Below the pieces are notes generated by a model. That model did not search any database. It was given only the letters and a program-made list of their open reading frames with translations, and had not been told where the DNA came from. Source: Acidimicrobiia bacterium (lineage in GTDB: Bacteria > Actinomycetota > Acidimicrobiia > Spongiisociales > JAENVV01). Taken from it: a stretch of 64,000 nt of DNA. The translations under genes were made by a program, and so were the position numbers. Positions 27,237-64,000 of the stretch are shown here, in pieces. Numbering within the stretch: position 1 is the stretch's first letter; the number at the start of each line of letters is the position of its first letter. The DNA lies in NCBI GenBank assembly GCA_041586155.1, contig JBFHAT010000010.1, positions 15,283 through 79,282 of the forward strand, given 5' to 3'.

Positions 27237-27243
27237 GAATCCC

Positions 27244-27462: not shown

Positions 27463-27512
27463 TCCGCCGGCCCCCTCGACCGTGACGGCGGCGACCTGCG
27501 CGTCGCCGTCAC
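27450..27512. other. two strong hairpins
   Basis: First: TCGAGGGGGC-ggatccgccg-GCCCCCTCGA at 27450-27479 (10-bp stem). Second: GTGACGGCG..CGCCGTCAC at 27482-27512 (9-bp stem). Both read directly from the sequence. Confidence 0.7.
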
Positions 27513-27520
27513 AAGACGAG

Positions 27521-27598
27521 CGCGGCCGAGAGGCCGCACCACCAGAACTCGACCCGAGCCTGCGAGGGTCGGAGACCGCCGCGGCCGAGAGGCCGCAC
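27521..27598. repeat. 19-bp direct repeat cgcggccgagaggccgcac (27521-27539 and 27580-27598); each copy forms a GCGGCC-gaga-GGCCGC hairpin
   Basis: Exact 19-nt match 59 nt apart; 6-bp GC stem with a GAGA tetraloop. Confidence 0.8.
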
Positions 27599-27605
27599 TA
27601 TCAAC

Positions 27606-27629
27606 TCGGGCGAATCCCGATTCGCCCGA
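27606..27629 (-). terminator. candidate intrinsic terminator of pafA
   Basis: Perfect inverted repeat TCGGGCGAATC-cc-GATTCGCCCGA begins 1 nt after the pafA TAG stop. It is followed on the minus strand by GTTGATAGTG, only a weak U tract. Confidence 0.55.
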
Positions 27630-27630
27630 C

Positions 27631-28986: not shown

Positions 28987-29027
28987 GACGGCAGCCTACC
29001 GCCCGGCTCCCGTTGCGGGACAGATCA

Positions 29028-29705
29028 TCATTGCTCGCCGAGCGCGGCGGCGATCTCCTCGTCGGTCAGCCGGCGGAAGCTGCGGCGTTTACCGTTCCTC
29101 TCGAGCACGGCAGCTTCCCAGCCGGAGGCTTCAGGGCGATCGTCTGCGAAGGCGGATGCTCCTGCCCGGAGGGCGGCGTCGAGGCCGAGTCCGTCGTCCC
29201 ACGCTCCTTCGAGTCGTTCATTCATGTCATCGGCGTGGCCACCAATGGAGGTGAAGCGACGCTCGTCGTTGAGGGTGCCGTCGTAGAGGATCCGATAGAA
29301 GCGGTTGTCCTCCGGCTGCACGCCGAGTTCTGCCACCAGCAGCTCGACTTCGTACGGCTTGATTTCGTGGGTGAAGATGTTGCCGAGGGTCTGAGCAAAG
29401 GCGTTGGCGAGGGATTTGGCGAGCACGTCTCCCCGACCGTAGAGGTAGCCCTTCATGTCGGCATGCCGGATTCCCGCAACGCGGAGCAGCTCGAACTCGT
29501 TGAACCGTCCCACTCCGCAGAATGCGATCCGGTCGTACACCTCGGAGATCTTGTGGAGCGTGCGACTGGGATTCTCCGCCAGCATCAGCAGACCATCGGC
29601 GTATTCCATGGCCACGATCGACCGTCCGCGGGCGATGCCCTTGCGGGCGAATTCAGCTCGGTCCTTGACGAGCTGTTCGGGCGGCACATAGAACGGCATC
29701 GTCAT
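29028..29705 (-). CDS. prcA: proteasome subunit alpha
   Basis: MTMPFYVPPEQLVKDRAEFARKGIARGRS..; 225 aa; ATGA overlap with prcB. Confidence 0.95.
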   Translation of the reverse strand: MTMPFYVPPEQLVKDRAEFARKGIARGRSIVAMEYADGLLMLAENPSRTLHKISEVYDRIAFCGVGRFNEFELLRVAGIRHADMKGYLYGRGDVLAKSLANAFAQTLGNIFTHEIKPYEVELLVAELGVQPEDNRFYRILYDGTLNDERRFTSIGGHADDMNERLEGAWDDGLGLDAALRAGASAFADDRPEASGWEAAVLERNGKRRSFRRLTDEEIAAALGEQ

Positions 29706-30511
29706 CGGATGCGCTCCAGTGCCCGCTCGGCTGCGGCGCGAACTTCGACTTCACCCAACTCGACGAAACCTTCGCCGGTGACCGCGACCACGTTGGGGAG
29801 GATGCCCCGCCTCAGATCGGGCCCGCCGGTCGCAACGTCTTCCTCAGCCGCGGCGACGAGTGCGCCAAGGGTCAGGTCGAGGGCGGCCGCCCGGTCGAGG
29901 CCGGTTTCGTATCGGTTGCGGAGAAAGGCGAGCGCCTCGCCTGCGCCGGATCCGGTGGCGGCGAATTCCTGCTCTTCGTAGGTGCCCCCGACGACATCGA
30001 ACGTGAACAGGCGACCGGTGCTCGCCACTCGGTCGTATCCGGCGAACAGCGGTATCACCACTAGTCCTTGAAACGCCATAGGCAGCTGCTGGCGGACCAT
30101 GCGGGCGAGGAAGTTGGCTTTGCCGTCGAGGCTCAGTCGGGTGCCTTCCAGTTTCTCATAGTGCTCGAGCTCGGTCTGGAAGAGTCGCACCATCTCGAGG
30201 GCGAGCCCGGCGGTACCCGAAATCGCCACTGCCGAGTAGTCATCGGCCGCAAACACTTTCTGGACGCGCCGATGGGCTATGGAGTAGCCGCTGGTGGCCT
30301 GGCGGTCGCCGACCATGATGACGCCTTCGGCGAACTGTGCGGCCAGCACCGTGGTGGCTTCCGGCACCGAGACGAGTCGGCCGTCGACGTCGATCGGGGC
30401 CGGTTCGAAGCCGGCGGAGCGCAATAGCGAGGAAAAACCCTCGGGACGGCCTCCGATGCCGGAGGGAAGGAGGTGCGAGATCGTGGGAGGTGAAGGCCTC
30501 TCTGCCGTCAC
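29702..30511 (-). CDS. prcB: proteasome subunit beta (with propeptide)
   Basis: GTG 30511 overlaps the pup stop (GTGA). The propeptide ends ..VSVPEA, followed by the catalytic TTVLAAQF... The track ORF is over-extended to 30886. Confidence 0.93.
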   Translation of the reverse strand: MTAERPSPPTISHLLPSGIGGRPEGFSSLLRSAGFEPAPIDVDGRLVSVPEATTVLAAQFAEGVIMVGDRQATSGYSIAHRRVQKVFAADDYSAVAISGTAGLALEMVRLFQTELEHYEKLEGTRLSLDGKANFLARMVRQQLPMAFQGLVVIPLFAGYDRVASTGRLFTFDVVGGTYEEQEFAATGSGAGEALAFLRNRYETGLDRAAALDLTLGALVAAAEEDVATGGPDLRRGILPNVVAVTGEGFVELGEVEVRAAAERALERIR

Positions 30512-30693
30512 TCTCCACCTTTTTGCACGTAGTTCTTGACGAATTCCTCGGCGTTTTCTTCGAGCACCGAGTCGATCTCGTCGAGCAGCTCGTCGATGGC
30601 CTCGGTGGTTTGGGACGCGGTGACCTCCACCTCGTCCTGGTCGTACGGCTCGTTCTCGTGCCGCCGGGACCGACGCTGTTCTTGTTCTGCCAT
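30508..30693 (-). CDS. pup: prokaryotic ubiquitin-like protein Pup (C-terminal GGE)
   Basis: MAEQEQRRSRRHENEPYDQDEVEV..EEFVKNYVQKGGE; 61 aa, between dop and prcB. Confidence 0.95.
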   Translation of the reverse strand: MAEQEQRRSRRHENEPYDQDEVEVTASQTTEAIDELLDEIDSVLEENAEEFVKNYVQKGGE

Positions 30694-30696
30694 GTC

Positions 30697-32172
30697 TCAG
30701 CCACCTCCAAGCGCGGCGAGCAACTCTGCGGCATCGGCCGCTTCGTCGAGCAGCTTCTCGGTCAGTTCCCGAGTGCCGCGCCTCGGTTCCATCATAGGCA
30801 CCCGTTTCAACAACTCGTGTCCGGTGTCGAACACGAGCGAGTCCCAGTTGGCCGCCACCAGGCTCTCCGGATACTGCTGGACGCACCTACCCCGGAAGTA
30901 GGCCCGGGTGTCTGTGGGCGGCTGGAGCATGGCGTCGGCGACCTGGGAGTCGTCGAACAGCCGGCGGATCCTGCCAGCGCCGAGCAGCTTGTGGTACAGC
31001 GATCTCGCAGGGTCGACGTCGTGGTACTGCAGGTCGACTGCGGCGAGTTTGGCGTCCTCCCAGGCGGAACCGCGATCGACGAAGCCCCGCAGGAGCTGGT
31101 ATTTGGCGACCCAGTCCAGGCGGTCGGCGGCCAGCATCGGGTCGCGTTGAAGGTCGGTGAGGAGGTCGGACCATTCGGCCAAAACCTGATCGGTCACCGC
31201 GTCATCACGCGACTTCTCGGCGTACTTGGTCAACCACTCCAGATATTGGAATTGAAGTTCGAGGGCGGTGGCTGTGCCGCCGTCGGCGAGCGGCAGCGGC
31301 ATGCGGAGATCCACGTCGTGACTCACTTGCCAGCACGCAGCGACCGGATCGGCGAGGCGAAGCGGATCGGGTAGCGCCCCGTCTTCGAGGGCCGACAGAA
31401 AGAGCTCACCGATGCCCAGCTTGAGGAACGTCTGCACTTCCGACAGGTTGGCGTCGGCGATGATCACATGCAGCCGGCGGTACTGCTCGGGGTCTGCGTG
31501 GGGCTCGTCCCGGGTGTTGATGATGGGCCGCTTCAGCGTGGTTTCGAGTCCAACCTCTTCTTCGAAGAAGTCGGCGCGTTGGGTGATCTGGTAAGGCACG
31601 GCCGGCCGATCGTTCTCGCTTCCAACCTTGCCGGACCCGGTGATGATCTGGCGGGTGACGAGCATTGTGGTCATGAAGTGGATGATGTCGCCGAACGGGA
31701 TCGCCCGCGAGATGAGGTAATTCTCGTGCGCACCGTACGAGTTGCCTTTGCCGTCCGAGTTGTTCTTGTAGATCCCGACCACTTCGCCGGCCGCGACCAT
31801 CTGTTGGGCGGAGGCGGCGGCGGCCGCCATCACGGCTTCGCCGACCTTGTCGTAGAGGGCAGCCGTACGCGGATCGGCCGCCTCCGGAGCCGAGTACTCC
31901 GGGTGGGCATGGTCGACGTACAGTCGCGCCCCATTGGACAACACCATGTTGACCACACCCGATTCGTAGTCTCCGGCGGCGCCGGACTCGAATCCGAAGC
32001 CTCTGGCGTCGCGCCCTGGCGATTCCTCCTCGAACGACCACTGCACCCTGGCTCTTGCACCTTCGTAGGCGTTGATGACGAAACCGGAAGCCAGCGACGG
32101 GTTGAAGTCGGCTCGGTTGCGGATCGAGATCCCAAACTCGGTTTCGGTCCCGATGACCTTCGGGAGCGCCAT
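30697..32172 (-). CDS. dop: depupylase/deamidase Dop
   Basis: MALPKVIGTETEFGIS..; PafA paralogue, 491 aa, immediately upstream of pup. Confidence 0.95.
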   Translation of the reverse strand: MALPKVIGTETEFGISIRNRADFNPSLASGFVINAYEGARARVQWSFEEESPGRDARGFGFESGAAGDYESGVVNMVLSNGARLYVDHAHPEYSAPEAADPRTAALYDKVGEAVMAAAAASAQQMVAAGEVVGIYKNNSDGKGNSYGAHENYLISRAIPFGDIIHFMTTMLVTRQIITGSGKVGSENDRPAVPYQITQRADFFEEEVGLETTLKRPIINTRDEPHADPEQYRRLHVIIADANLSEVQTFLKLGIGELFLSALEDGALPDPLRLADPVAACWQVSHDVDLRMPLPLADGGTATALELQFQYLEWLTKYAEKSRDDAVTDQVLAEWSDLLTDLQRDPMLAADRLDWVAKYQLLRGFVDRGSAWEDAKLAAVDLQYHDVDPARSLYHKLLGAGRIRRLFDDSQVADAMLQPPTDTRAYFRGRCVQQYPESLVAANWDSLVFDTGHELLKRVPMMEPRRGTRELTEKLLDEAADAAELLAALGGG

Positions 32173-48010: not shown

Positions 48011-49834
48011 TCACCTCCGCAAGGCCTCGTACACCTCCTCGGCAACCCCGGCGGGCACCACATCGGACAGGTCGTCGACACTGGCCGCTCGCAGCCGTTT
48101 GAGACTCCCGAAACGCCTCATCAGCAGCCGCTTCCGGGTCGGCCCAACCCCAGGAACGTCATCGAGGATGGAATCGATCATCCGCTTCCCGCGTAGCTGA
48201 CGGTGGTAAGTGACGGCGAACCGGTGCGCCTCGTCTCTGACTCTCTGCAGTAAGTAGAGCGCCGGCTCGTCGCGGGGAATGCGCACCGTGTCGGCCCGGC
48301 CGGGCAGGTACACCTCTTCCATCCTCTTGGCGAGGCCGGCGACGGGGATGTCCAAGCCCAGTTCGTCGAGCACACGGACGGCCCGCCCCACTTGTCCGGC
48401 GCCCCCGTCGATCAGTAGGAGTGACGGCGGGTAGCTGAACCGGCCACGCTCGTCTGGCGGCAGCTCACGCTCGCGTAGGTAGGCCCCGAAACGGCGCCGC
48501 AGCACTTCTTCCATCGATGCGAAATCGTCCTGGCCTCGCACCCACTTCACCTTGAAGCGGCGGTAGTCGGAGCGGCGTGGCAGCCCGTCTTCCAGCACCA
48601 CCATGGAGCCGACGGTGTGGCTTCCCTGCATCGTGGAGATGTCGAAGCATTCGATGCGGAGGGGTGGCGCTGGCAAATCCAGCGCCTGCTGCAACGACCG
48701 CAGGGCTCGTGCCCGGGCGTTGGGGTCCGATTGACGGCGTAGCCGGTGACGTCCCAGCGTCTCCTTGGCGTTGACGTGCGCCGTCTCCAGCAGCCTCCGC
48801 TTGGCTCCTCGCTGCGGAACCCGAATCTCGACCTGCCCGCCCCGCCGCTCGGTCAGCCAGCGCCGCCAGATGTCGGTGTCGTCGGGCTCTTCGTCCACCA
48901 CCACCAAAGGCGGCGGAGTCTCACGCCCATACCGCTCGCGGAGCATCTGACCGATGAGCTCGGCGGTGGTGACCTCTTCTACTTTGTCGACGATGGTCGT
49001 GTACTGCCCGGTCAGCCTGCCCCGCCGGACGAGGAGCACCGCCAGCGCCGCTTCCAGCTCCCCATCTTCGACTGCAATCACATCGAAGTGCTCGGGACGG
49101 TCGGTGACCACTTCTTGGCGGGCGATGGCTTTCTCGAGGTCGCGCAGCTGGTCGCGTAGCCGGGCGGCCCGCTCGTACTCCTGTCGGTCCGACGCGGCCT
49201 GCATCTCGGCTCTCAGCTCGTTGCGGATCTCGACGTTGTCGCCGTCCAAGAATCGGGCCAGCCCGTCGACGTGCTGTCGGTATTGCTCTGCGGTCACGGC
49301 GCCGATACACGGCGCGGAGCACTTTTCGATGTCGTACAACAGACATGGGCGGCCACGAGAGGCATGGTCACGGAACTTGCCGTCGCTGCAGGTGCGAATC
49401 GGAAACGTCTTCAACAGGAGGTCGAGCGTGTTGCGTATGGCATATGCATGGGCGAACGGCCCGAAGTACTGATCTCCTTTGCGCCTCCGACCGCGGCGCA
49501 CTCGGGCGGCCGGCCAGTCGTCGCGCCGGGTGATCGTGAGGAACGGATACGACTTGTCGTCACGGAGCCGGATGTTGAACCGGGGCTTGTGCTTTTGGAT
49601 GAGGGAGTATTCGAGCATGAGCGCCTCGACCTCGTTGTCGGTGACGATCACGTCCACGGTGTCGGCGGCGCCCACCATGGTCCGGGTCCGGGTGGCCAGA
49701 TCCTTGTTGAAGTAGCTGATCACCCGTTTGCGCAACGATTTGGCCTTGCCGACATAGAGCACCTGGCCGTGCCGATCTCGGAAGAGATACGCCCCGGGCG
49801 CATCGGGAAGCTCGGCGGTCTTTGGTCGCTTCAT
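48011..49834 (-). CDS. uvrC: excinuclease ABC subunit C
   Basis: GIY-YIG N-terminus (PGAYLFRDRHGQVLYVGKAKSLRKR), UVR domain, C-terminal (HhH)2; 607 aa; GGAGG before the ATG. Confidence 0.96.
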   Translation of the reverse strand: MKRPKTAELPDAPGAYLFRDRHGQVLYVGKAKSLRKRVISYFNKDLATRTRTMVGAADTVDVIVTDNEVEALMLEYSLIQKHKPRFNIRLRDDKSYPFLTITRRDDWPAARVRRGRRRKGDQYFGPFAHAYAIRNTLDLLLKTFPIRTCSDGKFRDHASRGRPCLLYDIEKCSAPCIGAVTAEQYRQHVDGLARFLDGDNVEIRNELRAEMQAASDRQEYERAARLRDQLRDLEKAIARQEVVTDRPEHFDVIAVEDGELEAALAVLLVRRGRLTGQYTTIVDKVEEVTTAELIGQMLRERYGRETPPPLVVVDEEPDDTDIWRRWLTERRGGQVEIRVPQRGAKRRLLETAHVNAKETLGRHRLRRQSDPNARARALRSLQQALDLPAPPLRIECFDISTMQGSHTVGSMVVLEDGLPRRSDYRRFKVKWVRGQDDFASMEEVLRRRFGAYLRERELPPDERGRFSYPPSLLLIDGGAGQVGRAVRVLDELGLDIPVAGLAKRMEEVYLPGRADTVRIPRDEPALYLLQRVRDEAHRFAVTYHRQLRGKRMIDSILDDVPGVGPTRKRLLMRRFGSLKRLRAASVDDLSDVVPAGVAEEVYEALRR

Positions 49835-49864
49835 CCTCCGGGCGAGTGTACCGAGCGGCCTGTT

Positions 49865-50535
49865 CTAGCCCTGGGCCCTCCATCGCAAGCCCAGCAACCG
49901 GGGCGGGCCGGCCCCGCCATCGGAGGCCCACTCCACTTCCTCGGCCTTCTCCAGATCCCACCCGGCATGCGCAGCGGCCGTAAGCAACGCGCCGAGCGGG
50001 CGGTGATAGAAGCGGATGGTGCCGGCCCCGGCCCTCTCCTCGGTGGCTCCTTCCTGCAGATAGGTTCCCCAGCGCCAGAACACCTCTCCATCGGCCGGGT
50101 CGACGACCGCCGCCGCACCAGGAGGGGTGAGCACCGGGTGATTCAACACTGCGACGAGCGAGCCGTTCTCCTTCACGACTCTCCGCAGCGCCGCCAATGT
50201 GCCGTACACCTCCGCGAGGTGCTCCAGCACGAGGACCACCACCGCCGTGTCGAACGCGTGCGAGCGAAGGCAGTCGATGTCGGGTAGGCGGGCGAGGACC
50301 ACGGGAGCCGTTTTTGCCGCGGCGGAAGCCAGCACCGGATTCACGTCGAGGCCGACGAGAGTTCGGCCTTGGCGGCGCAAGCGGCGCAGCACTTGGCCCT
50401 GACCGCAGCCGACTTCGAGGATCCGTCCTTCATCGTGAACGAGCCGATCGACCAGGGGCAACACGTAGTCTTCGTAGGAAGGGTCCTCGATGACTTCACC
50501 CAGCCACCATTCGGCGAGGTCGGCCCAGTCGGGTG

Positions 50536-50539
<4 letters not shown>
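49865..50539 (-). CDS. class I SAM-dependent methyltransferase
   Basis: Motif [13 protein letters not shown]; 224 aa; 4-nt overlap with uvrA. Confidence 0.85.
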
Positions 50540-53352
<2,813 letters not shown>

Positions 53353-53362
53353 GGACCGGACG

Positions 53363-53385
53363 ATTGTACCGGGACGCCGCGACAT
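53363..53385 (-). promoter_or_regulatory. RecA-NDp-like (PafBC-type) promoter of uvrA
   Basis: Minus strand reads ATGTCGCGG-cgtcccgg(8 nt)-TACAAT-10 nt-ATG. The published consensus, as I remember it, is tTGTCRgtg-N8-TAnnnT. The upstream box matches 6/9, including the TGTCG core, with exact spacing. Confidence 0.5.
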
Positions 53386-53403
53386 CGATTCGACCGCGGA
53401 TGT

Positions 53404-55416
53404 TCATCGCTTGGCAGCCCTCTCCTGGCGGAGGTCGCGGCGCAACTCCTGAACCTCGTCGCGCAGGCGGGCGGCATACTCGAAACGCAGGTCGGCTGCC
53501 GCTTCGTGCATCTCCTCCTCGAGGCTCTTGATGAGCCGCTCCAAGTCGTCTCCTTCGAGGTCGAGCGTGATCTTGCGCTCCACCGACCTACGTCGCCGGT
53601 CCACCGACGGGGCGTCCGTCGACTGCAGCAGCTCGAGAATATCGGACACCTTCTTTCGAATGGTCTGTGGGTCGATTCCGTTGGCTTCGTTGTATTGGAT
53701 CTGGCGGAGGCGCCGACGCTGCGTCTCGCCCAAGGCCTGCTGCATGCTGTCGGTGACCTCGTCGGCGTACATCACGACCTGCCCGTCCACGTTGCGGGCG
53801 GCCCGCCCGATGGTCTGGATCAACGACGTCTTCGAACGGAGGAACCCTTCCTTGTCGGCGTCGAGGATCGCCACCAACGACACCTCGGGAAGGTCGAGGC
53901 CCTCTCGCAGCAGGTTGATGCCGACCAGTACGTCGAAATCTCCCATGCGCAGCTCCCTGAGGATCTGAACGCGCTCCAGCGTGTCGATCTCCGAGTGGAG
54001 GTAGCGGGCGCGGACGCCCATCTCGAGAAGGTACTCGGTCAGGTCCTCGGCCATCTTCTTGGTGAGTGTCGTGACGAGCACTCGTTGGTCGGCGTCGGCT
54101 CGATCGCGAATCTCATTGAGAAGGTCGTCGATCTGGCCTTTGGTGGGACGGACGATCACCTCGGGATCGACCAAGCCGGTGGGACGAATGATCTGCTCGA
54201 CGACCTGAGAAGATCGCTCCACCTCGAACGGCCCGGGCGTTGCCGACAAGAACACCACCTGGTTGGCCTTTTCCAGCCACTCGTCGAAGCGGAGCGGTCG
54301 GTTGTCCATCGCACTCGGCAAGCGGAAGCCGTGCTCCACCAGCACCAGCTTCCGGCTGCGATCGCCCTCGTGCTGGCCGCCGATCTGGGGCACGGTCACA
54401 TGGCTCTCGTCGATGATCGTCAAGTAGTCGTCGGGGAAGTAGTCGAGCAGCGTATAGGGGGCCTCACCCGCTTCCCGGCCATCCAGAAAACGCGAATAGT
54501 TCTCGATCCCGCTGCAGAACCCGATCTCCCGCATCATCTCGAGGTCGTACGAGGTCCGCATCCGGAGCCGCTGCGCCTCCAGCAGCTTGTTTGAACCTTC
54601 GAGCTCCCCCAGCCGGCGTTGCAGCTCTTCCTCGATCCCGGCGATGGCCCGCTCCATCCGCTGGCGGCTGGTGACGTAGTGGGTGGCCGGAAACACCCAC
54701 AGCTCGTCGAGCTCGTCGATGACCTCTCCGGTGACCGGGTTCATGCGCAGGATCCGTTCGACTTCGTCACCCCAGAACTCGACCCGCGCCACCGTCTCTT
54801 CGTACGACGGGAACACCTCGAGGGTGTCGCCGCGAACGCGGAATCGGCCACGAACCAGATTCACCTCGTTGCGCTCGTACTGAATGTCGACGAGACGGCG
54901 CATCGCCGCTTCGAGCGGGTACTCGACTCCCTTGTGGAGACGAAGCACCTGACCGAGATACATCTCCGGCGTGCCGAGCCCATAGATACACGACACCGAC
55001 GCAACGATGATGACATCCTCGCGAGTGAGCAGTGCGCTGGTCGCGGCATGGCGTAGCCGGTCGATCTCGTCGTTGATCGTGGCATCCTTCTCGATGAACG
55101 TGTCCGTCTGCGGCATGTACGCCTCGGGCTGGTAATAGTCGTAGTAGCTGACGAAATACTCGACCCGGTTCTTTGGGAAGAACTGACGAAACTCGTTGGC
55201 GAGCTGGGCGGCCAGCGCCTTGTTGGGCGCGATCACCAGCGTCGGGCGTTGCACCCGCTCGATCGTCCACGCCATGGTCGCCGACTTCCCCGAGCCAGTG
55301 ATGCCAAGCAGAGTCTGGAATCGATCACCCTGCTGGATGCCGGCGGCCAACGCTTGGATCGCCTGCGGCTGGTCACCTTCCGGTTCGAAGTCGGCGTGCA
55401 CCTCGAATTTCGCCAC
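53404..55416 (-). CDS. uvrB: excinuclease ABC subunit B
   Basis: (GTG)[27 protein letters not shown]..; helicase motifs; C-terminal UVR domain; 670 aa. Confidence 0.97.
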
Positions 55417-55422
55417 CAGGGC

Positions 55423-55445
55423 AGCTTATCGGCTGCCCCCGACAA
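55423..55445 (-). promoter_or_regulatory. RecA-NDp (PafBC-type) promoter driving a leaderless uvrB
   Basis: Minus strand reads TTGTCGGGG-gcagccga(8 nt)-TAAGCT-gccctg-GTG(uvrB start). This is 8/9 to tTGTCRgtg, with exact N8 spacing and a TAnnnT -10. The 6 nt to the start codon imply a leaderless mRNA. The motif overlaps the last codons and TAA stop of coaE. Confidence 0.65.
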
Positions 55446-56019
55446 AAAAATCGTCGAGGAAACGGTCCAGTTCGTCGAGCTGCGGGTCGAGGTCGGCGGC
55501 TGTGCCGTCGTTGTGGATGACGAAATCCGCGGCCGCCCGCCAGGTGTCTTCGTCGGGTTGGGCGGCCAGTCTGCGACCGATGTCCAGTGGCGTCATACCC
55601 CGCCCGAGCAGCCTGGCCCGCCGCGTCGTGAGAGACGCCACCACCACGACGACCGGCCAATGGGGAAACCAGTCGCGCAGGAGGGGCACCTCGACGGCCA
55701 CGTCATTGGCGATCTCCTCGACGATTCCCTCGATCTCGGCGCGGATTCGGGGATGGGTGATGGACTCCAACCGCTCCAGCTCCTCCGGGTTGGTGAACAC
55801 CACCGACGCGAGGGCCGACCGGTCGATCCGGCTGTCGACAAGGGTCTCCGGCCAGCGGGCCACAACGTCCTCGTATGCGGCACCGTCTGGCTCGAGCACA
55901 CGGTGGCCCACCCGATCGGCGTCGATCACCACCCAGTTTCGTTGCTCGAGCGCCGATCCAACGAACGACTTGCCTGCGCCAATACCTCCCGTCAGGACGA
56001 TCCTTCGGTTACCTTTCAC
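55426..56019 (-). CDS. coaE: dephospho-CoA kinase
   Basis: (GTG)KGNRRIVLTGGIGAGKSFV..ITHPRI..; 197 aa. Confidence 0.92.
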   Translation of the reverse strand: MKGNRRIVLTGGIGAGKSFVGSALEQRNWVVIDADRVGHRVLEPDGAAYEDVVARWPETLVDSRIDRSALASVVFTNPEELERLESITHPRIRAEIEGIVEEIANDVAVEVPLLRDWFPHWPVVVVVASLTTRRARLLGRGMTPLDIGRRLAAQPDEDTWRAAADFVIHNDGTAADLDPQLDELDRFLDDFFVGGSR

Positions 56020-56039
56020 GCCGATGGAGCGTACAGCCG

Positions 56040-57530
56040 ATGGGTGAGTTCTCCGAGCGCTGGCTCAGCCGACTGCGCCGGGCGGTGTCCGGGCTCAACT
56101 GGCTCTTCGTCATCCTCGGAGTCGTCAGCACCGTCGCTTCGCCGCCCGTCACCTTCGCCGACGCCACCGCCGCCGTCCTGGCACTCACATACGTCGTCCT
56201 GATCCAGGTCGTCCCGCTGGAATGGCTGCGGCGCCCAGCAGCGAGAGAGTTCGTCGTCCTGGCGAGCACCGCGACCAGCGCAGCGGCTGCAGCGTTGAGC
56301 GGTGGGTTCGCCAGTCCTTTCGTCCTCCTCGCCATGACCCCAATCGTGATCGCGGCGGTCGTCGGTGGGTACCGACTCGGCGTGGCAACCGGTCTGCTGT
56401 CCGTTGCGATGACCGCCACTGCAGAAATGCTCAGTGCCAACCCGGATTGGATCCGTGCCTCGATCTGGATCGGGTTGGCGCTCATCATCGCCATCACATT
56501 CGGCCTGGCGAGAAAGCTCATTCTCGAAGCCGTGCAACAGGCCGACGTGATCGCAGCGCTGTCGGCGGAAACGGGGGCTCAGCTCGAACGGTTACAGAGC
56601 GCCAACAGTTTGATCTCACGTTTCGAGGACCTGACGGAGTCGGCCGAGTTGGACCCGGAGACCATCGGAACGGCACTCCTCGAATCAGTCCGCACCGCAG
56701 TCCCGTTCATCCACGGTCGTGTGCGGACGGCCGACGGCCTGGCCGTCGCCGAGCTGGGCGAGCCCTCTCCCAACGGGGAGAGCTGGTCACGGCCCATCGT
56801 GCACCGTGGCACGACGTTCGGTCGCATCGAGCTGGCGGTCGAGCGGCCCGTGACCACTCGCCAGCGCGACATCGTCGAGGACGTCCTTGCACCGGTCGGG
56901 GTCGCGTTCGCCAACATCCATTCGGTGCAGCGGATCGCCCGGGCGGCCATCGAGAACGAGCGGGCTCGGGTGGCTCGGGAGCTTCACGACGGCATCGGTC
57001 CGGCACTGGCGAGTCTCGGCCTGGCGCTCGACGTGGCACGGATGCAGTCCGGCGATCTCCCTGGTTTGGCCGGCGAGCTGGCGGACATGCGCACGACCGT
57101 TACGACGTTGGTGGAGGATGTCCGATCGAGCGTCGAGGACCTTCGCACCCCTGAGCCGGAGCCGCTGTCGGTTGCCCTCGTCGGCGTGGATACGGGAAGC
57201 ATCGGTTTGTCGGTCGACCTCGACACGAAAGCCGTACCCCGCGCCCGCCTGGCGGGTGACGTGAACGCCATCGTCGTCGAGGCCGTACGAAATGCGGTGC
57301 GCCATTCGAATGCCACGACGATCGGCGTGTTCGGCGTGCTCGATTATGACTCGGGAACGGTCACCATCGCCGACGACGGACGGGGATTCGACCCTGGCTC
57401 GGTGCCACCCGGGCACTTCGGATTGATCGGAATGCGCGAACGCGCCGAACGGATTGGAGCCGAGATTCGTTTAGAGTCTTCGCCGGATGGCACTCAGATC
57501 ACTCTCACCTGGCCGATGAGCACCACATGA
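56040..57530 (+). CDS. sensor histidine kinase, NarL-partner type (HisKA_3), polytopic N-terminus
   Basis: About 5-6 TM helices, a GAF-like middle region, H-box RARVARELHDGIGPAL, and an HATPase domain (..VEAVRNAVRHSNA..DDGRGF..GHFGLIGMRERA..). Start trimmed from 55875 to ATG 56040. Confidence 0.9.
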   Translation: MGEFSERWLSRLRRAVSGLNWLFVILGVVSTVASPPVTFADATAAVLALTYVVLIQVVPLEWLRRPAAREFVVLASTATSAAAAALSGGFASPFVLLAMTPIVIAAVVGGYRLGVATGLLSVAMTATAEMLSANPDWIRASIWIGLALIIAITFGLARKLILEAVQQADVIAALSAETGAQLERLQSANSLISRFEDLTESAELDPETIGTALLESVRTAVPFIHGRVRTADGLAVAELGEPSPNGESWSRPIVHRGTTFGRIELAVERPVTTRQRDIVEDVLAPVGVAFANIHSVQRIARAAIENERARVARELHDGIGPALASLGLALDVARMQSGDLPGLAGELADMRTTVTTLVEDVRSSVEDLRTPEPEPLSVALVGVDTGSIGLSVDLDTKAVPRARLAGDVNAIVVEAVRNAVRHSNATTIGVFGVLDYDSGTVTIADDGRGFDPGSVPPGHFGLIGMRERAERIGAEIRLESSPDGTQITLTWPMSTT

Positions 57531-58159
57531 TCTCTGTCGCCATCGCCGACGATCATCAGTTGTTTGCAGACAGTCTCTCGATGGGACTCAACTCGGTTCC
57601 TGACATTCGTGTCGCTGCCACGTTCAAGGACGGCGCCGAGCTGCTCGGCGGTCTGGACGACTTGGAGATCGACGTGCTCGTCATCGACTTGGAGATGCCA
57701 AACATCTCCGGTTTCGAGGTGCTCAATGCAGGAAGGCCGCTGCCACCCACCCTGGTCGTCACGATGCACAGCACCGAAATGCAACGTCGGCGTGCGCTCG
57801 AGTCTGGCGCTGCCGGGTTCTTGCCCAAGTCTGCGCCGCTCAACGACCTCGCTGCCGCGATCCGGGCACTCAACGCCGGCGAAGACCTGACCGAGTCAAC
57901 CACTCTCCGTGATGTTTTGCGCCAGCATCAGGAACCGGTCTACGACTCGCGTGTGCAAGCCCTGACCGCCCGAGAACGCGAATTGTTGCAGCTCCTGGCC
58001 GAGGGAGTGACGTCGACTCCCGACCTCGCCGACCAGCTCTTCATCTCGGAGAAGACCGTCAAGAACCATCTGGCGTCCATCTTCGAGAAACTCGAGGTGG
58101 CCGATCGGGCTCAAGCCGCCATCGAAGCGATCCGACTCGGGGTGGCGTCCCGGCGCTGA
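57527..58159 (+). CDS. response regulator, NarL/LuxR family
   Basis: Receiver domain (IADDH.., VLVIDLEMP) plus LuxR HTH (LTARERELLQLLAEGVTSTPDLADQLFISEKTVKNHL). It overlaps the kinase stop by 4 nt. Confidence 0.93.
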   Translation: MISVAIADDHQLFADSLSMGLNSVPDIRVAATFKDGAELLGGLDDLEIDVLVIDLEMPNISGFEVLNAGRPLPPTLVVTMHSTEMQRRRALESGAAGFLPKSAPLNDLAAAIRALNAGEDLTESTTLRDVLRQHQEPVYDSRVQALTARERELLQLLAEGVTSTPDLADQLFISEKTVKNHLASIFEKLEVADRAQAAIEAIRLGVASRR

Positions 58160-58258
58160 ACCGGCCAAGGAGCAAATAGGCCTCCCGACCTATGGTCTTT
58201 TCCACTCTAAGTGGTACCTTGTTGATCGTTATCCGTATCCCATGGGAGGGGTAGTTCG

Positions 58259-58441
58259 ATGAAATCAGCGTACAGCTGGCTCACGGTCAAGTGGGCTGAG
58301 ATGGACGATGAGGCTGGCGCGAGCATGGTGGAGTACGCCCTGCTCGTCGTTCTCATCGCCATCGTGGCAATCGCGGCGGTCGTGATCGCAGGTAAAGAGG
58401 TCTCGTCCACGTTCAGCGACATCGCCACCGGCCTGCAGTAA
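58259..58441 (+). CDS. flp: Flp-family type IVb pilin (copy 1)
   Basis: MKSAYSWLTVKWAEMDDEAG|ASMVEYALLVVLIAIVAIAAVVIAG... Flp motif G/xxxxEY followed by a hydrophobic helix. GGGAGGGG lies 8 nt before the ATG. Confidence 0.88.
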   Translation: MKSAYSWLTVKWAEMDDEAGASMVEYALLVVLIAIVAIAAVVIAGKEVSSTFSDIATGLQ

Positions 58442-58462
58442 TCCAGGGAGATCGGGGGGAGC

Positions 58463-58621
58463 ATGATCGGTCGTGTCATCCACGACGAGACCGGCGCCAA
58501 TCTGGCCGAGTACGGCTTGTTGGCAGTCCTGATCGCCATCGTCGCCATCCTGGCAGTGATCGCAACAGGCAAGGAAACGTCGAGTATGTATAGCGAGATC
58601 GCAACGAATCTCGCCGGCTGA
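58463..58621 (+). CDS. flp: Flp-family type IVb pilin (copy 2), 52 aa, not in the ORF track
   Basis: Hand translation: MIGRVIHDETG|ANLAEYGLLAVLIAIVAILAVIATGKETSSMYSEIATNLAG*. GGGGGGAG precedes the ATG. The mature part is roughly 65% identical to copy 1. Confidence 0.85.
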   Translation: MIGRVIHDETGANLAEYGLLAVLIAIVAILAVIATGKETSSMYSEIATNLAG

Positions 58622-58639
58622 TCGTGCGAAACGGTCGAA

Positions 58640-58671
58640 GGAACGGGCGGTGCACACGCACCGCCCGTTCC
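58640..58671 (+). terminator. intrinsic-terminator-like hairpin after the flp genes
   Basis: Perfect 14-bp stem GGAACGGGCGGTGC-acac-GCACCGCCCGTTCC, 18 nt after the flp2 stop. There is no clear U tract, which is common in GC-rich actinobacteria. Confidence 0.6.
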
Positions 58672-59004
58672 TCGCGTCAGGGTTCGCCCCAGAACCGCCA
58701 CCACCCCACTTCACGTTCTGCGGGGAAGGCGGGCGGTCATTTCGTGGTCGATGGTTGGCGCAGCAGGCCCACGACCGCCGGCTCTAGTTCTACGGCGCCG
58801 AACCCCTCACTACGCCACTTCTGAGCCGAGCACACATCGTTGCGGTCAGAATCCCCTTTCGCCTTCCCGGCGGCCAGCCGAAGGTGGGAGCGGCCGCCCC
58901 AACGCCTTCTGCACCATTCGGGTTCTGTGGTGACTCGTCGCCGACGGACGGCGCAGCGGAGGACGAGGGCGACAGCCCGTTGGAGCGCAATCCTCCGGAA
59001 AGGG

Positions 59005-59928
59005 CTACCGGTTGATGAAGTTCTCCCAGATGCTCAGGGCAGCCGGACCCAAGAGCACCACGAACAGCGTTGGGAAGATGCAGCACACCAGCGGGAACAC
59101 CATCTTGACGGGCGCAGCAAACGCCCTCTCCTGTGCCGCTTGGCGGCGCTTGATCCGCATCTCATCGGCCTGGACGCGCAGGACCCGAGCGATGGCGACA
59201 CCGAAGGCTTCGGCCTGCATCATCGCCAGGAGGAACGACCGCAACTCGTCGAGGTCGGTTCGATCCATCAGATGCCGCATGGCATCGCGCCGGCTGACGC
59301 CGACTCTGGTTTCCTGCAGCATCCGGAAGAACTCCTCGGCGAGCGGTCCTGGAACCGTCTCGACGACCCTCGCGAGGGCCGAGTCGAAGCCTAGGCCCGC
59401 CTCGACCGAGATCACGAGGAGATCGAGCATGTCGGGCAGGTCCCGCTGCATCTGTTTGCGCCGATCGTCGATCTTGCGATTGAGCCACGCGTCGGGACCG
59501 AGCAGCCCTACTGCGAGCGTCAGGCCACCAAGCAGCAAGAGCCGCCCGACATCCGCAGTGGCCAGCCGCGTGAAGAACAGGATCACCGCCAATGACCCAC
59601 CGATCGCCAGCAGCTTGATCACCGCCCATGCGTTGGCATCGAGCTTGTTCTGCAGGCCGGCGTACACGATCCGCTGATTCGTCCGCCGCGACCAGCCCGA
59701 CCCCGGCAGGAACCGCGAAATCATCCTGCCCATCCACATCAGCACGGGCGCCACCGCCCGCTGCGACAGCGGCTGCTTCAGCGTGTCATCACGCAGCTCC
59801 TGCGAGCCGTACACCGCCAGTCGCGAGGTGGCGCTGCTCTTGGCTCGGATGAGGCCGCCACCCACCCATACGACGAAGGCGGCGATGGCAACGAAAACGG
59901 CGCCGGCGGCGAATGCAATGTCGGTCAT
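59005..59928 (-). CDS. tadC: Tad pilus platform protein TadC (T2SSF family)
   Basis: MTDIAFAAGAVFVAIAAFVVW.., ..QRDLPDMLDLLVISVEAGLGFDSAL.., ..FPLVCCIFPTLFVVLLGPA... ATG 59928 overlaps the tadB stop as ATGA. Confidence 0.88.
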   Translation of the reverse strand: MTDIAFAAGAVFVAIAAFVVWVGGGLIRAKSSATSRLAVYGSQELRDDTLKQPLSQRAVAPVLMWMGRMISRFLPGSGWSRRTNQRIVYAGLQNKLDANAWAVIKLLAIGGSLAVILFFTRLATADVGRLLLLGGLTLAVGLLGPDAWLNRKIDDRRKQMQRDLPDMLDLLVISVEAGLGFDSALARVVETVPGPLAEEFFRMLQETRVGVSRRDAMRHLMDRTDLDELRSFLLAMMQAEAFGVAIARVLRVQADEMRIKRRQAAQERAFAAPVKMVFPLVCCIFPTLFVVLLGPAALSIWENFINR

Positions 59929-61886
59929 ATCTCGATATCCACGATCTGGGCCATCCAATAGATTCCGATGGCCATCAACACCAAGCCGCCGGCCAGCGCA
60001 CCGATCCCGACGGTGTTGCTCAGGAGCGGTTCCAGGTACTCGCGATTGGTGATGAACAGCCAGGCGAACAGGGCGAACGGCATCGACGCCAGCACGTAGG
60101 CAGAGATGCGGCCCTCAGCGGTCAGCGCTTTCACTTCACGGCGCAACCGGTTGCGCTGGAGCATCGTGTCGGCGACCGTGTTGAGGACCTCGGATAGGTT
60201 GCCTCCGACCTCGCGTTGAATCTCCACCGCCATCACCGCCCACGCGAAGTCGTCCGACTTGGTGCGCTCGGCGATCCCCTGCAACGCCGCAGTGACCGGT
60301 TGGCCCAGGCGGATCTCGGTGATACTGCGGCCGAACTCCCGCGCAGTCGGCATGGGCGCCTCCGACGCCACGGCCTCGATCGCTTGCAGCAGCGAGTAGC
60401 CGGCTCGCAGTGAGGTGGCCAACAGCGTGAGGGTGTCCGGGAGCTGATTTTCGAACTTACGCTTCTCGCTTCGACCCAAGATTGTCAGCACGACGAACAC
60501 CAGCGCCAGCGAGATCGCTGCGACGAGCACACCGATGTAGACATTGGCGCTCAATGCGCCCACGAGACCGCCGAGAAGGACCGACAGCACCAAAGACAGG
60601 GCAATGGCTTCACCGGGCCGGAGTGCGATGTTGGCCTGCTCCAGCGCGGCATTGACCGTATACAGCAACCCCCGGCGTTGAACGAGAGACTCCGCCCTGT
60701 CCGATAGCGAGCGCAGGAAGCCCGTCTGGAAGATCCCGGCTCGTTCCTGTGCGTCTGGCGCGCGCTCGAAGCTGGCCATCCTCCTGCGCAGCTTCTCCTG
60801 TGTGTCCTCCTCCTTCGGGCAGAACAAGATCCATACGACCCCGAGCGTGGCAATGGCGGTTCCGATGATGCCCATCCAACGCAATACGCCCGCAGGTGCC
60901 GGGAGATCACCCGTGACGACGTATGGCTGTGGCGGCGTCAGCACGAACTCACCGGCGCTGTTGGTGGTCCCACCGGCGACCGGATCGCCGTTGGTGACGA
61001 AGCCGGGAACCTCCACGATCTCGGACGACCGAAGATTCTCGTATTGCACCGCAAACGAAACATCGGTTGGCGCACTCTGCGTTGCGTTGAAGCGGAGAAC
61101 GACCTTGTTATTCAACTCGCGCCGAATGTCGGCATACAGGCTGTCGAGCTGTTCGGGATCAGCGGTCGCGAGATACAGACCACGAGAGGCTTCGGTGATC
61201 TGGCGAATCGTGTCTCCCTGAAAGTCCTCCGATTCGAGGGCGATCCCGAACACTCGGACCTCGTTGTCGGTGACGGCGGCGATGGCCTCGTCGACGCTCG
61301 ATCTGCTGCCGTCGTCGGCTCCGTCGGTGAGGGCGATGATGTGCGGCTGCAGGTCGGGATCGGCGTCGTAGAGCTCGGCGCTGCGCACGATGGCGTCGAA
61401 GAAGTTGGTGCCACCCTCAGCGGTCAGATCGGCGATCCGGGCGGTGACCGCTCGGGCGTTGTCGGTGAAAGGCACCAGCAGCTCCACCTCCGATGCGAAG
61501 GTGACGAGGGCGATCGAGTCCTGCTCGCGTTTCTGGTTGACGAACTGGATGGCGGCCGCCTTGGCTGCCTCGAGCGGGGCACCGTCCATCGAGCCGCTCA
61601 CATCGATCACCAGGACGACGCCCACACGAACCGAAGACTCCTCCACGGAAAGCACCTCGACGTCGTCGAGAACGACTCCATCTTGAGACACCACGACTTG
61701 GTCGAGATCGAGCTCACCGATGTTGCGGAACTCAGTCGTGATCGTGACCTGCCCATCCTCGTCGTAGCGAGCCAGGTTGACGTCCACGAGGACCACCTCC
61801 GGCGCGTCGGCCTGCTGCGCTCCCACCGGGAGAGCGAGCAGTGCAACGATCGCGAAGATCGCCGCCGAGATCCAGCGCGCCCTCAT
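59925..61886 (-). CDS. tadB: fusion protein: secreted VWA domain + TM helix + TadB platform domain (T2SSF family)
   Basis: 653 aa. Signal peptide MRARWISAAIFAIVALLALPVGAQQ. VWA domain with MIDAS residues (VIDVSGSMDG, EGGTNF, ALTDGADDG) at about aa 88-262. TM helix WMGIIGTAIATLGVVWILF. Then ..FENQLPDTLTLLATSLRAGYSLLQAI.., typical of TadB. Confidence 0.85.
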   Translation of the reverse strand: MRARWISAAIFAIVALLALPVGAQQADAPEVVLVDVNLARYDEDGQVTITTEFRNIGELDLDQVVVSQDGVVLDDVEVLSVEESSVRVGVVLVIDVSGSMDGAPLEAAKAAAIQFVNQKREQDSIALVTFASEVELLVPFTDNARAVTARIADLTAEGGTNFFDAIVRSAELYDADPDLQPHIIALTDGADDGSRSSVDEAIAAVTDNEVRVFGIALESEDFQGDTIRQITEASRGLYLATADPEQLDSLYADIRRELNNKVVLRFNATQSAPTDVSFAVQYENLRSSEIVEVPGFVTNGDPVAGGTTNSAGEFVLTPPQPYVVTGDLPAPAGVLRWMGIIGTAIATLGVVWILFCPKEEDTQEKLRRRMASFERAPDAQERAGIFQTGFLRSLSDRAESLVQRRGLLYTVNAALEQANIALRPGEAIALSLVLSVLLGGLVGALSANVYIGVLVAAISLALVFVVLTILGRSEKRKFENQLPDTLTLLATSLRAGYSLLQAIEAVASEAPMPTAREFGRSITEIRLGQPVTAALQGIAERTKSDDFAWAVMAVEIQREVGGNLSEVLNTVADTMLQRNRLRREVKALTAEGRISAYVLASMPFALFAWLFITNREYLEPLLSNTVGIGALAGGLVLMAIGIYWMAQIVDIEI

Positions 61887-61888
61887 CG

Positions 61889-63259
61889 CTACCTGAGGCC
61901 GAATGAACCGCGCCGAGCCGGCGGCTCGGGGGCGAACAGGTCGGGCGGCAGTTCGACGCCCAGATCCTGCAACTGCTGCGAGAACGAAGGACGGATGCCG
62001 GTCGCCTTGAGATGGCCGAGGTAGCGGCCTTCCTCGTCGACGCCCATACCGAAGTCGAACAAGAACAGGTCCTGGAGGGTGATCACGTCGCCTTCCATCC
62101 CCTCCACCTCGGTGATGTGCGTGATCCGCCTCGTACCGTCCCGGAGGCGGGCCACATGCACGATGAGATCGACAGCCGAAGACACCTGCTCTCGGATGGC
62201 GCGAACGGGCAGGTCGAATCCTGCCATGAGCACCATCGTCTCGATCCTGGACAGCGTGTCTCGAGGCGAGTTGGAGTGCACCGTCGTGAGCGAGCCGTCG
62301 TGACCCGTGTTCATGGCCTGGAGCATGTCGAGTGCCTCGCCGCCACGCACCTCACCGACGACGATCCGGTCGGGTCGCATCCGCAGCGTGTTCCGCACGA
62401 GGTCACGGATTGCGATTTGGCCCTTGCCTTCCAGGTTGGGCGGCCGAGACTCGAGTGACAGCACATGTCGCTGCCGGAGTTGGAGCTCGGCGGCGTCCTC
62501 GACGGTGATGATTCGCTCGTTGTCGGGGAGGTATCCCGAAACGACGTTCAACATCGTGGTCTTGCCGGAGCCCGTTCCGCCGGAGATGATGACATTCAAT
62601 CGGCCCACCACGCAACCGGCCAGGAAGTCTGCCACCCGCTTGTCGAAGGTGCCGTTGGCGATGAGGTCGCCCTCCATCAGTGGGTCGACCGCGAACTTCC
62701 GGATGGTCAGGAAGGGACCACCGATCGCTAGCGGATGTATGATTGCGTTCACACGGGAGCCATCGGGCAGGCGGGCATCGACCATCGGCGTGGCTTCGTC
62801 GACCCGCCGGCCTACCTGGCCAACGATCTTGTCGATGATGCGCCGCAGGTGCGTGTCATCGACGAACCGAACGGAGGTGCGCTCGATCTTGCCCGACCGC
62901 TCGACGTACACACTGTGAGGCCCGTTGACCATGACCTCGGTGATCTCTGGGTCGGTGAGTAGAGGATCGATCGGGCCATAGCCGAGCACATCGTTGGCGA
63001 TCTCGTTGATGAGATTCGTGCGGTCGGCCGCCGACAGAGGAAGTCCCTGCTCCTGGTCGACCGCCCACTCGAGCATCTCGATGACCCGCAGCCGCAGCTC
63101 TGCGTCGGACATCTGCCGGTCGTACAGCGTCGGGCCCAGCTCCTCCACGATGCGGAAGTGAAACTTGCCGCGCAGTTCCCTGAAGACTTCGTCCTGACGT
63201 GAGTCGGCCTTCGACGTTGCCGTCTTGGCTGCTGCAACCCTCTCTGATAACGATGCCAT
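61889..63259 (-). CDS. cpaF: CpaF/TadA family pilus assembly ATPase
   Basis: ..VIISGGTGSGKTTMLNVV.., ..RIITVEDAAEL.., ..RPDRIVVGEVRGGEALDMLQAMNTGHDGSLTTVH..; 456 aa. Confidence 0.94.
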   Translation of the reverse strand: MASLSERVAAAKTATSKADSRQDEVFRELRGKFHFRIVEELGPTLYDRQMSDAELRLRVIEMLEWAVDQEQGLPLSAADRTNLINEIANDVLGYGPIDPLLTDPEITEVMVNGPHSVYVERSGKIERTSVRFVDDTHLRRIIDKIVGQVGRRVDEATPMVDARLPDGSRVNAIIHPLAIGGPFLTIRKFAVDPLMEGDLIANGTFDKRVADFLAGCVVGRLNVIISGGTGSGKTTMLNVVSGYLPDNERIITVEDAAELQLRQRHVLSLESRPPNLEGKGQIAIRDLVRNTLRMRPDRIVVGEVRGGEALDMLQAMNTGHDGSLTTVHSNSPRDTLSRIETMVLMAGFDLPVRAIREQVSSAVDLIVHVARLRDGTRRITHITEVEGMEGDVITLQDLFLFDFGMGVDEEGRYLGHLKATGIRPSFSQQLQDLGVELPPDLFAPEPPARRGSFGLR

Positions 63260-63285: not shown

Positions 63286-64000
63286 TCACTTGCGCCGCTT
63301 GCCCTTCTTGTTGTCCGCTTCGAATGCGGTCGGCGCCACGAGCCGAGCCACCGACTCGAAACCCTTGGCCACCTTGGATCGGGGAGCCGACTCCACGACC
63401 GGTCGACCTTCGTTGACCGACGCGGGGACGAGCCCATCCGATGGTACCGCGGCAGCGATCTCTATCTTCAGTGATCGCTCGATCTCGTGCTCATCGAGCC
63501 GCGCCCGAGCATTGGACCGGTTGAGCACGAGGGAAATCTTCGAGGAGGGGAACTGGAGTAGGCGCAGCGTCTCGAACGCCAGTTTGGCGTTCTTGACACT
63601 GGGAAGGTCCATGTCGACGACATAGAGCACCTGATCGGCACGCTCGAACAGCGACAACAATGTCTCGTCGAGCAACGAAGCGGTATCGACGATGACATAG
63701 TCGAACATGGTGCGCAGCCGAGCGATGATGTCGGTGATCATCCGCGAGCTGATGTCGTCGGCAAACGCAGGCTCGAGCGGCGCCGCCAGCACCGACAAGC
63801 CGCTGCTGTGCTTGGTGATGAACGAACGCAACAGGCTCTCATCCAGCCGACCCAACTCTTGGGTGGCATTGACCACCGTGTATTTGGGCTCGAGCTGCAG
63901 CACCAGACAGACGTCGCCGAACTGCAGATCGGCGTCGACGATGATCACCCGGTCGGGACCGAGCGCCCGAGCCAAGAGGATGCCCAGGTTGGTGGCGGTG
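63286..64000 (-). CDS. TadZ/CpaE-like ParA/MinD-family ATPase; N-terminal part lies beyond the right edge
   Basis: ..RVIIVDADLQFGDV..YVIVDTASLLDE..LYVVDMDLPSVKNAK... The frame is still open at 64000 (..TATNLGILLARALG..), so the gene is truncated by the window. Confidence 0.85.
   Translation of the reverse strand, partial: TATNLGILLARALGPDRVIIVDADLQFGDVCLVLQLEPKYTVVNATQELGRLDESLLRSFITKHSSGLSVLAAPLEPAFADDISSRMITDIIARLRTMFDYVIVDTASLLDETLLSLFERADQVLYVVDMDLPSVKNAKLAFETLRLLQFPSSKISLVLNRSNARARLDEHEIERSLKIEIAAAVPSDGLVPASVNEGRPVVESAPRSKVAKGFESVARLVAPTAFEADNKKGKRRK

Follow-up and report, generated by a model that had tools for sequence, protein, structure and literature searches.

Can the platform protein of a tight adherence (Tad) pilus machine carry a binding domain of its own on the outer side of the membrane, and what would such a domain do there? 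The question is raised by a 64,000-nucleotide stretch of an Acidimicrobiia bacterium genome (GenBank assembly GCA_041586155.1, contig JBFHAT010000010.1, positions 15,283 to 79,282), hereafter the window, whose tad operon contains a tadB gene with a von Willebrand A (VWA) domain encoded in front of the platform body (VWA::tadB, 59925..61886, minus strand). Characterised TadB proteins are about 300 residues long and have almost nothing outside the membrane. We are close to certain that the product is a TadB (CpaG-type) platform subunit of a monoderm actinobacterial Tad/Flp machine with an added VWA ectodomain, and we propose, far more tentatively and at a chance somewhat short of even, that this ectodomain acts as a docking module within the machine. 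To the explanation as a whole, platform identity and internal docking together, we assign a probability of about 55%.

Anatomy of the fused protein

VWA::tadB is one continuous open reading frame (ORF). Read from the window sequence, it has 653 codons, an ATG start and no internal stop, which agrees with the single uninterrupted gene described in an earlier note made from the sequence alone. The TAG of cpaF (61889-61891) is followed after 2 nucleotides by the ATG of VWA::tadB (61886-61884), and the TGA of VWA::tadB (59927-59925) overlaps the ATG of tadC (59928-59926) as ATGA. These junctions confirm that the gene occupies the canonical tadB slot. The profile search that the note had suggested yields a significant VWA match in the N-terminal half and a T2SSF match in the C-terminal half. 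On residues 90-251 three Pfam models score well above their gathering cut-offs of 24-27 bits, namely VWA_2 (1.1e-18, 68.2 bits), VWA (2.9e-16, 60.6 bits) and VWA_3 (3.6e-10, 40.5 bits). The T2SSF domain (PF00482) is found once, as a single stretch at residues 486-610 (60057-60431, minus strand), with an E-value of 5.9e-22 and 78.4 bits for a cut-off of 25.2 bits.

The TadB body comprises residues 333-653 (59925..60890, minus strand) and consists of a first transmembrane helix (TM1, residues 333-357), cytoplasmic helices, a TM2-TM3 hairpin (residues 427-473), the T2SSF domain and TM4-TM5 (residues 594-648), after which the stop codon follows. Hydropathy places the membrane helices at residues ~335-357, 427-447, 453-473, 594-613 and 625-648, each of TM1 and TM3 being followed by a K/R-rich stretch. 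The helices of an AlphaFold2 model over residues 333-653 agree. The neighbouring TadC (307 residues) begins with a transmembrane helix and shows a helix pattern that matches the TadB body. The layout of one membrane helix followed by a full T2SSF/TadB domain holds. Because this TadC-like pattern starts with a membrane helix at the very N-terminus, the N-terminus of VWA::TadB is expected to face outward, and therefore the addition of a signal peptide and an ectodomain would be topologically simple. Hydropathy, charge and the TadC-like layout thus support the placement of the VWA domain on the outer side of the membrane. The T2SSF region is the best conserved part of the protein, with 79% identity across homologues, which argues that the usual platform job is retained.

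Comparison with known platform proteins leads to the same identification. Like TadB/CpaG of Aggregatibacter, Caulobacter, Pseudomonas and Bifidobacterium, the window protein is polytopic with an N-terminal membrane helix, has a single T2SSF domain, is encoded between tadA/cpaF and the paralogous tadC, and presumably forms a heteromer with TadC under the ATPase (PMC11300603, PMC13170226). Unlike them, it is about twice the size and begins with a signal peptide, followed by a VWA/beta ectodomain and a tether that leads into TM1. It shares with GspF, PilC and PulF a homologous T2SSF cytoplasmic domain and a role under the ATPase, but those proteins have two T2SSF repeats per chain and no ectodomain, whereas here there is one repeat and a TadC partner. 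We therefore rejected a full-length GspF/PilC-type platform on the single T2SSF stretch found by Pfam. PulF is reported as a trimer (PMC10790770).

The added N-terminal half begins with a Sec-type signal peptide (residues 1-23, 61818..61886, minus strand, as are all parts of this gene). It has a basic MRARW start, a 14-residue hydrophobic core within a hydropathy peak at residues 3-26, and a V-G-A/Q site at which cleavage (VGA/QQ) is predicted from hydropathy, charge and alignment. A23 is invariant among homologues, whose consensus around the site is PAxAQ. These elements bear out the signal peptide proposed earlier. The following beta-strand segment (residues 26-85, 61632..61811), previously described as about 60 beta-rich residues, has modelled strands at residues 30-37, 46-54, 64-68 and 77-80, a predicted local distance difference test (pLDDT) value of ~86, and a mean identity of 40% among homologues. 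The model was computed for the 653-residue product alone with a 32-sequence alignment and has a mean pLDDT of 75.5. It resolves the protein into a confidently predicted VWA ectodomain (residues 30-295), a tether and a body of five helices.

The VWA domain itself (residues 86-258, 61113..61631) is modelled as an alpha/beta domain at residues 88-259 with pLDDT 91-97. All five residues of the MIDAS (metal ion-dependent adhesion site), D95-x-S97-x-S99, T160 and D188, are present, as the earlier note had read them; they are invariant in 32 of 32 homologues and the site is mostly retained in 12 distant ones. Since the MIDAS is invariant, metal-dependent ligand binding by the ectodomain appears to be under selection, and the ectodomain is predicted to be a metal-dependent ligand-binding, or docking, module. 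The next part of the anatomy needs one correction. Of what had been called a spacer of about 70 residues, only residues ~296-332 are a disordered linker; residues 261-293 form three confident strands (261-267, 274-282 and 285-293, pLDDT ~90) of a C-terminal beta segment (residues 259-295, 61002..61112), which may pack with the N-terminal strands as one beta domain. The linker (residues 296-332, 60891..61001; pLDDT 37-47, and below 50 throughout residues 300-328) has the lowest identity in the protein, 21%, and among homologues it varies in length and sequence and is Thr/Pro-rich.

Structural searches place the ectodomain firmly among VWA proteins, the only ones among the Foldseek matches in the PDB. 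The longest alignments are with VWA proteins that have attached beta domains, ITIH1 (6fpy, 3.4e-13), 4fx5 and ArnB (8s05). They are followed by BatB, vWF-A3 and integrin I domains, with TM-scores of 0.75-0.79 (normalised to target length) for vWF-A3 and integrin I. Two pilus-associated VWA proteins, Mfa5 and Streptococcus sanguinis PilB (7b7p, E 8.6e-9), are also among the matches. A profile search of PDB sequences recovered ArnB (8s05) at E 7e-18 and found no close solved relative of the ectodomain. The Catenulispora VWA structure 4fx5 was considered as a solved ectodomain of the VWA::TadB family and rejected, since its match (E 1.9e-10) is of a generic kind and confined to the VWA region. 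BatA/BatB and ArnB, which are membrane-anchored VWA proteins, and ITIH1 thus provide the best sequence and fold matches of the ectodomain, but none of them is fused to T2SSF. Identity as BatA or BatB was rejected on NCBIfam scores of 36.6 bits for BatA (cut-off 380) and 16.3 bits for BatB (cut-off 350).

Distribution and variants of the fusion

The earlier note implied that the fusion is rare, and this did not hold. A word-indexed search returned 618 relatives, the best 120 of which are all 604-673 residues long with VWA and T2SSF, mostly from Acidimicrobiia metagenome-assembled genomes (MAGs). Their database names are limited to "tight adherence protein B", "type II secretion system F family protein" and "VWA domain-containing protein". 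An exhaustive search of 50%-identity representatives gave 2265 matches below 1e-30; among the best 150, 145 are at least 600 residues long and nearly all of these align end to end at 29-55% identity, making the fused architecture common to at least 140 clusters at 50% identity. A scan of GTDB with one genome per species found at least 510 relatives. We examined the best 80 as loci and found the full-length fusion in every one; these genomes are Acidimicrobiia or Actinomycetota-looking MAGs, a few labelled merely "bacterium" or Acidobacteriota. The fusion is the standard tadB of Acidimicrobiia.

Fused members at greater distance come from Egibacteraceae, Coriobacteriia, "Actinobacteria HGW-6", Candidatus Hakubella thermalkaliphila, Candidatus Humimicrobiaceae and a Nocardioides sp. 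assembly, a spread across Actinomycetota. Three low-GC-looking members (P0160, P0264 and P0167) were considered as non-Actinomycetota, and this was rejected since every named relative in the search belongs to Actinomycetota (Ca. Hakubella, Humimicrobiaceae, unclassified Actinomycetota or Actinobacteria MAGs and one Nocardioides sp.).

The same surveys bear on whether the gene could be an artefact, with tadB and a VWA gene of its own run together by a frameshift, mis-assembly or read-through. The likelihood of this is negligible. A few split or partial MAG entries exist, for example adjacent fragments of 475 and 138 residues in one cluster, but hundreds of assemblies made independently show a single ORF of 620-670 residues, even where identity falls to 29-37%, and the ectodomain and core matches are contiguous in all 80 GTDB loci. 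In addition, the codon usage of VWA::tadB is uniform and like that of the neighbouring genes, with a GC content at third codon positions of 0.81.

Thousands of fused sequences have already been deposited, under generic names. A full-text search of the open-access literature and bioRxiv found no text that combines T2SSF and VWA and no description of a VWA domain on a platform protein; in those texts VWA is reported only on TadG/CpaL, PilY1 and pilins. The fusion is thus widespread and yet, as far as we found, undescribed: of the earlier proviso that it might prove both common and already characterised, the first half applies, and a functional description was not found.

Two kinds of variant depart from the standard architecture. 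TadB proteins of ~890-900 residues carry two VWA domains; in the three that were scanned (P0124, P0126 and P0290) these stand in tandem before the T2SSF body. Two further proteins (P0128 and P0133) were placed with them by length only, and one of the five is named from Egibacteraceae. Conversely, two close relatives have no ectodomain. P0161 (L086 445-1464) is a plain TadB of 339 residues, and P0174 (L087 183-1244) has a signal peptide and a short Ser-rich linker immediately before TM1 without VWA, as if the ectodomain had been deleted naturally. Both genes directly follow tadA, and both proteins branch within the fused radiation in a neighbour-joining tree of TadB cores, computed without support values, suggesting secondary loss of the ectodomain.

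The earlier note had also contrasted the fused domain with the separate TadG-type protein on which VWA modules sit in other Tad systems. As a general rule, replacement of one by the other does not stand. In Ca. Hakubella thermalkaliphila (L090 4467-12965) the fused tadB shares a cluster with flp and with one gene each of TadE-like and TadG-like type. The product of the latter has the N-terminal PF13400 domain only, without VWA, and hhalign gave no profile similarity between it and the ectodomain (probability 0.2%). This single case is in line with a VWA module that may be carried by either TadB or TadG.

The operon and its envelope context

In relatives the operon reads cpaB/rcpC-tadZ-tadA-VWA::tadB-tadC. 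This gene order is conserved in all 80 related loci, with tadA and tadC each detected in 79, and cpaB and tadZ are found in all 63 loci that have enough upstream sequence. In the window, on the minus strand, the tadA/cpaF ATPase gene (61889..63259; Pfam T2SSE 6.8e-64, NCBIfam TadA-family ATPase 5.5e-101) precedes VWA::tadB, and tadC (59005..59928; T2SSF 1.1e-19) follows it. The tadZ/cpaE gene (63286..64000, minus strand) is cut by the window end, to which its frame is open. Only the C-terminal part of this ParA/MinD-type protein is inside, and it is 84% identical to residues 152-377 of the 388-residue TadZ of a relative (L001). The head of the operon, cpaB/rcpC, falls beyond the window.

Two flp pilin genes lie on the plus strand, convergent with tadC. 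The first (58259..58441) encodes 60 residues with the processing motif G/ASMVEY (Pfam Flp_Fap 7.2e-9), and the second (58463..58621) encodes 52 residues with G/ANLAEY; its Flp_Fap match (7.6e-7) is below the gathering score, and its position is kept in relatives. One to four flp genes adjoin the tad operon in relatives. Just past the second flp gene, at 58638-58675 (plus strand), a GC-rich inverted repeat (gaaggaacgggcggtg...caccgcccgttcctc) read by eye is probably a terminator. Between tadC and flp the window has 384 non-coding bases only. In three relatives this interval holds an extra polytopic protein without a Pfam match (L003 13034-14212, L004 12868-14892, L012 around 13074); the 674-residue call in L004 apparently runs antisense over the flp genes. 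This gene was considered as a pilus component and rejected as a polytopic membrane protein without pilin features.

Upstream of the flp genes, on the plus strand, are a LuxR-type response regulator and a HisKA_3 sensor kinase whose N-terminus is polytopic (55875..58159 together, the regulator at 57527..58159; both by Pfam). The true start of the kinase is probably downstream of 55875. Such a pair stands beside the tad operon in 38 of the 38 related loci with enough flank, and the kinase-regulator-flp module also follows the operon in a Nocardioides MAG. The kinase of the window module (55875-58621) has no large outer domain; the module was also seen in L001, L003, L004 and L088. By analogy, the module recalls the PilS/PilR control of pilin supply.

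The constant presence of this module is one of the observations that would be expected if the ectodomain were an external ligand sensor or adhesin, binding a substrate or another cell and either adhering itself or gating pilus assembly and retraction, perhaps with input to the two-component system. The pilus VWA modules of PilY1, CpaL, PilB and PilC1 are linked to adhesion and mechanosensing, and the VWA copy number of one to two would also be in keeping with such a role. A link between kinase and TadB is, however, hypothetical, and the domain is anchored in the membrane beneath the wall instead of being exposed at the pilus tip. Its conservation, moreover, is above what would be expected of an adhesin that diversifies with its ligands. 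Across the same genomes the mean identity is 45% for the ectodomain and 43% for CpaB, a rate that weakly suggests a conserved partner instead of a diversifying adhesin. On this balance we consider a sensor or adhesin improbable.

No secretin gene was found within 10 kb in the tad loci of the Acidimicrobiia relatives, nor in the Nocardioides and Ca. Hakubella loci. This brings in another possibility, that the ectodomain is an envelope anchor or stator. It would bind the cell wall (peptidoglycan-linked polymers or a surface layer), fix the platform there and so do the aligning and load bearing for which diderms use the secretin and its partners. Hosts that are Actinomycetota with no visible secretin gene in their loci, the long flexible tether and a moderate conservation rate, as for a structural part, all speak for an anchor. 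VWA domains of the MIDAS type, however, usually bind acidic residues of proteins and not glycans, and CpaB/RcpC is already a candidate alignment component. We regard an anchor as possible, though unlikely.

Other Tad components were sought in the same loci. In the Acidimicrobiia loci neither a TadE/F/G-like gene nor a prepilin peptidase gene was found within 10 kb on either side. The scanned ORFs of the window likewise include no secretin, TadE/F/G-like protein or prepilin peptidase; the polytopic ones are TatC, a major facilitator superfamily transporter and the sensor kinase, and one small SecG-like ORF was outside the scan. A regular expression for pseudopilins (G-x4-E[FYLMW] with a hydrophobic stretch), applied to 88 loci, gave 130 short Flp genes and 6 long matches, of which those inspected are unrelated (for example a Tat-component-like ORF beside TatC), and no pseudopilin or TadG partner. 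With the TadE and TadG of Ca. Hakubella as queries, tblastn gave no match in the 80 Acidimicrobiia loci.

The wider surroundings (window 21345-32172, and 48011-56019 on the minus strand) are core actinobacterial chromosome. They include Pup (61 residues, the last being E), a homologue of the Pup ligase/deamidase, TatC with the Tat-component-like ORF, a DEAD/DSHCT helicase, uvrC, uvrA, uvrB and coaE, several of these named by inspection or from relatives' annotation. Relatives, too, have their tad operon in the polA-rpsA ... coaE-uvrB-uvrA neighbourhood.

A possible docking role and its meaning

How might such a protein work? In the explanation we prefer, the outward N-terminus of the first membrane helix has gained a Sec signal peptide and, behind it, a folded ectodomain of ~270 residues, with a flexible tether of ~35 residues linking the ectodomain to the membrane part. 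The membrane and cytoplasmic part would, together with TadC, let the TadA/CpaF ATPase drive Flp pilin insertion and extraction. The ectodomain would act as a protein-docking module held permanently at the machine base, on the outer side of the membrane. Each TadB would contribute one ectodomain, and three around the pilus exit are probable if TadB and TadC assemble 3:3, as modelled for CpaG/CpaH. A partner at the machine base would be bound, through one of its acidic residues, by the metal of the MIDAS. This partner would most likely be a part of the machine itself, with the nascent pilus, its initiation complex and the CpaB/RcpC ring as candidates, and the docking may organise or stabilise assembly in an envelope without a secretin. 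Here we infer the signal-peptide cleavage, the stoichiometry, the docking partner and the effect on assembly. The broader suggestion of the earlier note, that the ectodomain couples pilus assembly to a ligand, to the cell wall or to a pseudopilin, is plausible.

Known VWA proteins of type IV filaments provide the precedent for docking. The VWA modules of CpaL, TadG, PilY1 and S. sanguinis PilB act with a priming complex seated on the platform (PMC13170226, PMC12607857), and roles in priming, adhesion and force sensing are described for those of PilY1, PilB and PilC1 (PMC12607857). As in Caulobacter CpaL and in TadG, the MIDAS-bearing VWA domain of the window protein belongs to a Tad machine and lies outside the cytoplasmic membrane, and CpaL has been modelled atop CpaG/CpaH before assembly. 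In CpaL and TadG, however, the domain sits on a module that resembles a pilin (PF13400 or a prepilin-like N-terminus) and is able to depart with the tip of the pilus, whereas the VWA domain of the window protein is covalently fixed to the platform. VWA::TadB has no Pfam match to the TadE/G-like segments PF13400 or PF07811, and it starts with a Sec-type signal whose site is AxA-like; an identity as a TadG/CpaL-type protein was rejected for want of a pilin-like N-terminus. PilY1 of type IVa pili and S. sanguinis PilB, whose host is monoderm, likewise have VWA modules on type IV filament components, but they are tip adhesins or priming factors and not the membrane motor platform.

Several observations weigh against docking within the machine. 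With a tether of ~35 residues, the ectodomain could also extend beyond the machine and contact the wall or external ligands. The two relatives that naturally have no ectodomain indicate that it is dispensable for platform function as such. The outward topology derives from hydropathy and charge, and the argument from conservation rate is itself weak. Furthermore, pseudopilin and prepilin-peptidase genes, absent from the scanned ORFs of the window, may lie elsewhere in the genome, so that a replacement of TadG is not established.

A bolder version of the docking idea is conceivable. The ectodomains could form a fixed crown at the pilus exit that ties TadB/TadC to something static, such as the CpaB ring or else the wall, or that grips the pilus base and reports load to the kinase/regulator/flp module. 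We think this distinctly unlikely. If the crown were tied to a static partner, a freely rotating platform would be excluded, and the fusion would be natural evidence for a non-rotating ('gyratory') model of type IV filaments; if it gripped the pilus, the mechanosensor would be at the pilus base, not at its tip.

Among the core parts of type IV filament machines, the platform proteins are the least understood, with rotation versus flexing, copy number and outer-face contacts among the questions that they pose (PMC11300603, PMC13170226). At the level of domain architecture, our finding is that throughout a phylum's worth of lineages a folded domain of ~30 kDa with a ligand-binding site is placed on the outer end of TadB. 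The fusion constrains the freedom with which the platform may turn, and it is a natural marker by which TadB could be located and counted, through electron cryotomography or labelling. It is also a clue that the VWA module, elsewhere found on TadG/CpaL, PilY1 and pilins, acts near the platform. For the abundant uncultured Acidimicrobiia of soil and water, it shows how a Tad machine without a secretin may be organised.

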